From contig NZ_CP046222.1 of assembly GCF_012571795.1 (NCBI RefSeq), positions 330,819 to 362,818 on the forward strand: a stretch of 32,000 nucleotides of DNA. Direction: 5' to 3'. Shown piece after piece: positions 31,476 to 32,000 of this stretch. The DNA is from Candidatus Saccharimonadota bacterium. GTDB lineage: Bacteria; Pseudomonadota; Gammaproteobacteria; Enterobacterales; Enterobacteriaceae. The first letter of the stretch is position 1. Every line of letters begins with the position of its first letter. Both the position numbers and the translations under genes were made by a program. The notes beneath the pieces are model-generated. The model made no database searches. It was not told the origin of the DNA and worked only from the letters and a program-made list of their open reading frames with translations.

Positions 31476-31859
31476 AAGGTTAAGACTCACGGGTGTTTAT
31501 TAGTACTGGTTAGCTCAACATATTACTATGCTTACACACCCAGCCTATCAACGTCATAGTCTTTAACGTCCCTTTAGGGATATCTATAAAATAAATAAAT
31601 ATCCTGGGAAGAATAATCTTAAGGTAAGTTTCGCGCTTATATGCTTTCAGCGCTTATCTTTTCCGCATTTAGCTACCGGGCAATGCCATTGGCATGACAA
31701 CCCGAACACCAGAGATGCGTTCACTCCGGTCCTCTCGTACTAGGAGCAAATCCTTTCAATCTTCCAACGCCCACGGCAGATAGGGACCGAACTGTCTCAC
31801 GACGTTCTAAACCCAGCTCGCGTACCACTTTAAATGGCGAACAGCCATACCCTTGGGAC
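31476..31859 (-). rRNA. rrl: 23S ribosomal RNA, 3'-terminal about 384 nt only (roughly E. coli positions 2534-2904); collinearity ends abruptly at 31859
   Basis: The window matches the reverse complement of the E. coli 23S 3' end: aaggttaag.ctcacgg...ttagctcaac, gctttcagc, ccgcatttagctaccgggca.tgccattggcatgacaacccgaacaccag, ggtcctctcgtactaggagca, cccacggcagatagggaccgaactgtctcacgacgttctaaacccagctcgcgtaccactttaaatggcgaacagccatacccttgggac. The expected continuation (ctacttcagccccagg...) is absent. Confidence 0.9.
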
Positions 31860-32000
31860 AACTATAACGGTCCTAAGGTAGCGAAATTCCTTGTCGGGTA
31901 AGTTCCGACCTGCACGAATGGCGTAATGATGGCCAGACTGTCTCCACCTGAGACTCAGTGAAATTGAAATTGCTGTGAAGATGCAGTGTACCCGCGGCAA
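31860..32000 (+). rRNA. rrl: 23S rRNA internal segment in the opposite orientation (sense on the plus strand), roughly E. coli positions 1912-2052 (helix 69 loop toward the peptidyl-transferase ring); cut by the window end
   Basis: aactataacggtcctaaggtagcgaaattccttgtcgggtaagttccgacctgcacgaatggcgtaatgatggccagactgtctccacctgagactcagtgaaattgaaattgctgtgaagatgcagtgtacccgcggcaa is the SENSE strand of 23S domain IV/V (E. coli AACUAUAACGGUCCUAAGGUAGCGAAAUUCCUUGUCGGGUAAGUUCCGACCUGCACGAAUGG...GUACCCGCGGCAAGACGG). It differs from E. coli at only a few positions (for example G->A, C->T and CTC->ATT). Confidence 0.85.

Follow-up and report, generated by a model that had tools for sequence, protein, structure and literature searches.

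A strand switch inside the 23S rRNA gene of a reed beetle endosymbiont genome is most probably a contig inserted backwards during assembly

Fragmented or scrambled rRNA genes are known from the mitochondria of Chlamydomonas and apicomplexans, where relatives share the arrangement and the pieces are expressed. Inverted arrangements can also be artefactual. Multiple displacement amplification (MDA) is said to generate inverted chimeras, as Lasken and Stockwell reportedly described in 2007, rRNA operons can collapse in short-read assemblies, and de Bruijn assembly graphs can yield inversions at contig boundaries, usually because of a repeat within the genome. A 23S rRNA gene in the window (the whole stretch of 32,000 nucleotides of DNA that was analysed) invites comparison with all four systems. 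Its likeness to the organelle genes is superficial: rRNA pieces lie on opposite strands and out of order but, unlike in the organelles, relatives are collinear and the breakpoints fall where assembler arithmetic would set them. The gene shares with MDA chimeras an inverted join of sites a few hundred bases apart and differs from them in that no amplification was used and the join lacks microhomology. As in other short-read assemblies, the two rRNA operons came out as one collapsed contig, which was then placed at both sites; here, however, the junction lies 384 nt inside the 23S gene and not at the edge of the repeat. The de Bruijn misassemblies share with it breakpoints at both ends of a k=77 edge, a neighbour shortened by the exact k overlap, and a location in a region joined by hand or with Geneious. 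The difference lies in the cause, which here would be the 23S of a second organism in the reads rather than a repeat within the genome.

The preliminary description of this DNA had reported a change of strand and register in the 23S gene at 31859/31860. This switch is real, as Rfam matches on both strands and the alignment with the E. coli 23S gene show. Positions 31476–31859 match the Rfam bacterial LSU model (RF02541; gathering score, 50) on the minus strand at model positions 2556–2925 (335 bits), in the orientation expected for the locus, and the match leaves the last 139 nt of the window unaligned. When searched alone, positions 31855–32000 match the plus strand at model positions 1930–2078 (120 bits, E=8e-38), and both pieces score above the gathering score. 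Aligned with the E. coli gene, the antisense piece (31476–31859) corresponds to the 23S 3' end, positions 2536–2904, and stops at G2536, an end also backed by an exact 92-nt match. The sense block (31860–32000) corresponds to positions 1912–2052 and starts at A1912. The start of the sense block had been estimated at about 1912, which proved exact; the end of the antisense piece had been put at about 2534 and is in fact G2536. E. coli position 2536 on one strand directly abuts position 1912 on the other, and the gene as deposited is neither contiguous nor collinear. An in-place inversion with this geometry would span E. coli positions 1912–2535. Reading the sequence directly and aligning it with E. 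coli revealed no microhomology at the join. Nor is there a foreign insert (an intron or an endonuclease ORF) at the junction, which has 23S sequence on either side.

The antisense piece carries an AT-rich expansion (ctataaaataaataaatatcc, approximately 31578–31604) in the 3' domain of the 23S, near model position 2823. The expansion makes this part about 16–19 nt longer than in the Rfam consensus or in E. coli, and sister symbionts appear to share it because the 384-nt piece aligns with theirs without a difference in length. On the other side of the junction, the sense block (31860–31885, plus strand) begins at AACTATAACGGTCCTAAGGTAGCGAA, which we take to be the 23S target site of the homing endonuclease I-CeuI minus its first base; the target region presumably starts at about position 1911. 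A link between I-CeuI and the junction was rejected as coincidence, nothing having been inserted, and the coincidence is explained by the k-mer arithmetic described below rather than by endonuclease activity.

The join appears to be confined to this record. A BLAST search against 5,426 E. coli genomes returned no single place covering at least 80% of positions 31476–32000, so the two 23S parts never occur together there in this arrangement. The two halves of the junction 48-mer are each identical in E. coli, and the full 48-mer is present in none of 185,579 GTDB species-representative genomes, a set that does not include the source genome. A 25-mer version of the junction retrieved 0 JGI metagenome contigs. 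These absences indicate that the join is neither a recurrent natural arrangement nor a common artefact.

An 8/9 inverted repeat near the junction had been proposed as a substrate for template switching or recombination. The proposal does not hold, since one arm of the repeat is 10 nt away from the join rather than at the junction, and an inverted match at least as good accompanies 115 of 2000 random inverted joins within this gene (5.8%). The two GGTCCYAAGG motifs from which the repeat derives are direct repeats in the native gene, and the breakpoints lie at different offsets from them. With native direct repeats, unequal offsets and a match expected by chance in 5.8% of joins, the motifs were rejected as the substrate of the rearrangement.

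The window encodes an HtpG protein with 100% identity to its counterpart in the Enterobacteriaceae endosymbiont of Neohaemonia nigricornis and is thus part of the endosymbiont genome of this reed beetle. Through HtpG homologues we reached the same locus in the symbionts of Macroplea mutica (CP046218.1, the PacBio reference), M. appendiculata (CP046220.1), Donacia tomentosa (CP046216.1) and Plateumaris sericea (CP046224.1). Crp matches in GTDB genomes came only from free-living Enterobacterales and Vibrio at approximately 60% identity, and none of 80 Crp loci contained a 23S gene (0/80). The 23S gene of both Macroplea symbionts and of the D. tomentosa symbiont covers Rfam model positions 1–2925 on one strand. 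The P. sericea gene covers positions 415–2925, also on one strand, in a locus cut at its end. In all four sister symbionts the 23S gene is followed by the 5S gene and then by the same four tRNAs. The antisense piece of the window is 96.9% identical to the 23S of the Macroplea symbiont and collinear with all four sister operons. Positions 31860–32000 map onto the same 23S gene of the sisters on the opposite strand, 485–625 nt further in. From 14539 up to 31859 the window follows both Macroplea genomes collinearly; over 14539–32000 it departs from this order at a single place, 31859/31860. The strand-switched arrangement is therefore not conserved: the four relatives are collinear at this locus (4/4).

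The sisters also reveal the origin of the flipped block. Positions 31860–32000 are 100% identical to the 23S of the M. appendiculata symbiont and 98–99% identical to that of the three other sister symbionts. The block differs from E. coli at four positions (1989, 2001, 2021 and 2023), all symbiont-specific substitutions. The identity with the sisters, together with these substitutions, indicates that the flipped block is native and not contaminating E. coli DNA, as the preliminary description had also concluded from a few differences.

The surroundings of the operon are ordinary. The 5S rRNA gene of the same operon lies downstream of the 23S gene on the minus strand (31294–31409; RF00001, 80.5 bits), as it does in the sisters. 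It is followed on the same strand by tRNA genes for Thr(tgt), Tyr(gta), Gly(tcc) and Thr(ggt) (30849–31239; ARAGORN and Rfam), the four found in the sisters. This cluster is the unique flank that anchors the operon to the chromosome, and beyond it lie crp, trpS, rpe, aroB, aroK, htpG and dnaX.

Several features of the wider locus were recorded as side observations. The tRNA cluster corresponds to thrU-tyrU-glyT-thrT, which in E. coli presumably precedes tufB; in the window it comes after the 5S gene and no tuf follows. A single tuf gene (13095–14282) sits instead between fusA (14302–16413) and a block of nusG, rplK, rplA, rplJ, rplL, rpoB and rpoC, all on the minus strand (1318–16413). In E. 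coli, the str-operon genes adjoin tufA and the secE-nusG-rplKAJL-rpoBC genes adjoin tufB. The arrangement in the window looks like the footprint of an old recombination between tufA and tufB, followed by loss of one copy. The dnaX gene (23331–24431, plus strand) encodes 366 amino acids, close to the 365–375 in the sisters; the tau and gamma products of E. coli have 643 and 431. The tau-specific C-terminal domains appear to have been lost across the lineage. A match to the SRP RNA at 23196–23260 (plus strand) is partial (model positions 14–79 of 97, 51 bits), whereas those in the symbionts of M. appendiculata, D. tomentosa and P. sericea are essentially full length (approximately 1–97, 58–65 bits). 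Judged from these matches, ffs may be more eroded or more diverged in the window. The convergent genes trpS (ending at 30108) and crp (ending at 30105) share 4 nt at their stop codons, an overlap that illustrates the compactness of the genome. An MTHFR (metF-like) gene lies between crp and the tRNAs in the symbionts of D. tomentosa and P. sericea (16388–17296 and 17660–18586 of their respective loci). The window has only a spacer of approximately 105 nt in this gap (30743–30849), as do both Macroplea symbionts. This fits the reported loss of methionine biosynthesis in the Macroplea and Neohaemonia symbionts (Reis et al., 2020).

How the genome was assembled bears directly on the junction. The N. 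nigricornis symbiont genome comes from a study of reed beetle symbionts (Reis et al., 2020, Nat Commun 11:2964; PMC7289800), and its raw reads belong to BioProject PRJNA587602. All genomes but that of the M. mutica symbiont were assembled with SPAdes 3.12 from approximately 5 million 150-bp paired (2x150) Illumina reads. The contigs were ordered and oriented by BLAST against the M. mutica reference and then joined, either in Geneious or through alignment of their ends with the reference (Reis et al., 2020). The authors could not resolve the rRNA operons, which they copied and joined with Geneious or by hand. The two operons of these symbionts had collapsed to one contig, and this contig was pasted at both positions (Reis et al., 2020). 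Thus, the junction falls in the part of the genome that was built by hand and, as both operon copies are one pasted contig, the assembly holds no copy-specific information. The DNA was extracted from the symbiotic organs and Illumina-sequenced directly; no whole-genome amplification is described, and the word 'amplification' does not occur in the text of the paper (Reis et al., 2020). Because this was plain Illumina sequencing of extracted DNA, the chimera of whole-genome amplification that the preliminary description had considered drops out.

We then asked whether the breakpoints equal the ends of assembler contigs in a de Bruijn graph. Any exact run of k or more bases that two sequences have in common is merged in such a graph. 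A contig specific to one of them and leaving a shared run starts with the last k bases of that run, and a contig entering a run ends with its first k bases. The 23S genes of the Macroplea symbiont and E. coli share only two exact runs of at least 77 nt in the whole gene, at 1882–1988 and 2459–2627. At k=77 these define a single symbiont-specific edge, from 1988−76=1912 to 2459+76=2535, which is 625 nt long. The ends of this edge are both breakpoints to the base, as the window joins 2536 to 1912. Consistent with this, the flipped block is identical to E. coli over its first 77 nt (31860–31936, plus strand; E. coli 1912–1988) and departs from it at the 78th base (31937, A for G at position 1989). 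The left end of the second run (2459) is bounded by an A for G at position 2458, as read from three agreeing sister symbionts rather than from the Neohaemonia sequence. The 77-mer that opens the block would be the branch-vertex k-mer from which the contig starts, and positions 31860–32000 would be the first 141 nt of a 625-nt SPAdes contig (1912–2535) that was misoriented.

The agreement is specific to one combination of k and partner. We tried k values of 21, 33, 55, 77, 99 and 127, each with the E. coli or a sister symbiont 23S as the partner sequence. Only k=77 with the E. coli partner reproduces either breakpoint, and it reproduces both. This partner yields 34 candidate edges in total, out of 4.3 million conceivable pairs of positions, which puts the chance at approximately 8e-6 (or about 1e-5). 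The values 21, 33, 55 and 77 are what we take to be the automatic k set of SPAdes for 150-nt reads, of which 77 is the largest; the same set is in common use with SPAdes 3.11. Cross-contamination between sister-symbiont libraries was rejected as the cause of the branching, for no k fits with the 23S of M. mutica or D. tomentosa as the partner. Also wrong was the notion that the breakpoints mark where symbiont and E. coli begin to differ: both lie inside perfectly conserved runs and are offset by exactly k−1 from the run ends.

These results bear on the possibility that the inversion is real, with a block of approximately 625 nt (E. coli 1912–2535, carrying helix 69 and most of the peptidyl-transferase centre) turned around in one of the two rrl copies and the cell living on the other. 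With two rRNA operons, the loss of one 23S copy need not be lethal; furthermore, the block is native sequence and what the window shows of the geometry would suit an in-place inversion. Yet there is no biological reason for both breaks to lie exactly 77 nt inside the only two long runs identical to E. coli (chance, about 1e-5), and no repeat or microhomology is available as a substrate. The two deposited copies are the same pasted contig and hold no copy-specific information. In addition, the four relatives are collinear at the locus, and 26 symbiont genomes are reported to be perfectly syntenic (Reis et al., 2020). We consider it very unlikely that the inversion of 1912–2535 exists in the living symbiont, be it in one freshly killed rrl copy or in both, which would make the k=77 match a coincidence. 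If it were true in both copies, the peptidyl-transferase region would be transcribed from the opposite strand and assembled in trans, and the organism would be a bacterium with a scrambled 23S.

Such a truly scrambled or fragmented 23S, in which transcripts of both strands would come together in trans as they do in some organelles, has in its favour only the bare change of strand in mid-sequence. All of the evidence against a real inversion applies to it as well, and the closest relatives keep an ordinary operon. The flipped block is also unchanged with respect to a sister (100% identity), and no promoter or processing features are needed to explain the data. This makes a scrambled gene barely conceivable here. 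The biological readings that the preliminary description had entertained (a real inversion and a scrambled rRNA) thus give way to breakpoints placed, to the base, where a k=77 edge of the assembly graph begins and ends.

The assembly could alternatively have incorporated a chimeric DNA molecule or read, produced by ligation during library preparation, by fold-back or by template switching, in which case the 3' end of the rrn operon could be folded back or partly duplicated in inverted form. Chimeras of this kind typically join neighbouring sites on opposite strands in an inverted manner, and the window ends too early to tell a fold-back from an inversion. Against this, neither MDA nor any other amplification was used, the join lacks microhomology, and a random event would not hit both boundaries of the k=77 edge. 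Furthermore, an assembler normally passes over the occasional chimeric read in favour of the true path, whose coverage is high, all the more so where a region has two copies. A chimera is an improbable source of the junction. The fold-back variant predicts sense 23S sequence continuing through GTCCCAAGGGTATGG (past position 2536) to a plus-strand 5S gene.

We therefore favor an assembly artefact, in which one 625-nt contig was inserted backwards and no biological rearrangement took place (probability approximately 0.92). Most of this confidence, which is for an artefact overall, goes to the mechanism of the flipped k=77 contig. The preference for an artefact expressed in the preliminary description stands, as does the contig concatenation that it listed among possible artefacts. 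The geometry, however, is that of its inversion reading, with a block of about 620 nt flipped.

The flipped contig could have arisen as follows. The read set would have included a second 23S of the E. coli/Enterobacterales type, contributed by a contaminant or by some associated bacterium, and the match with the E. coli partner suggests that the library contained Enterobacterales-type DNA. Some additional branching of the graph is needed because the junction lies inside the gene rather than at a repeat edge, which the collapse of a repeat alone cannot explain. At the final k of 77, the symbiont and the second 23S would merge only at 1882–1988 and 2459–2627, and the graph would branch at both. 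The symbiont-specific piece between the two runs would then be emitted as a separate contig of 625 nt (1912–2535) that overlaps each neighbour by 77 nt. While the operon was rebuilt, guided by the reference and in part by hand, the 77-nt overlap would have been trimmed off the neighbour carrying the 23S 3' end, leaving that neighbour to end at 2536. Attaching the small contig in the wrong orientation would place base 1912 after base 2536 on the opposite strand, and 31859/31860 would be the join of two assembler contigs.

The Geneious overlap assembler would normally have placed such a contig in its correct orientation, and a flip therefore calls for joining by hand or by coordinates. The flip may well be the outcome of a merging of this kind in which the orientation of the small contig was overlooked. 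Manual and coordinate-based joining steps were used generally in the study, and none is documented for the N. nigricornis symbiont genome in particular (Reis et al., 2020). The proposed mechanism makes precise predictions for the sequence beyond position 32000. Approximately 484 more nt of sense 23S should follow, ending in ...CTGGGGCTGAAGTAG (that is, CATCCTGGGGCTGAAGTAG), and then antisense sequence ACGGCCGCCGTTTACC (that is, ACGGCCGCCGTTTACCGGGGCTTCG) from E. coli position 1911 downwards. Had the other contig lost the overlap, the far join would move by exactly 77 nt. Since one contig was copied into both places, the second rRNA operon of the record may contain the error as well.

The error resides in a public genome labelled complete, whose 23S as deposited cannot be annotated as one gene. 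Left in place, it would mislead rRNA-based phylogeny, probe design and automated scans for rearrangements. The arithmetic that exposes it provides a reusable, reads-free diagnostic for misassembled rRNA genes, which is to ask whether each breakpoint lies exactly k bases into a run that the gene has in common with a frequent contaminant. As for the symbiont of N. nigricornis itself, its true 23S gene at this locus is expected to be normal and collinear.
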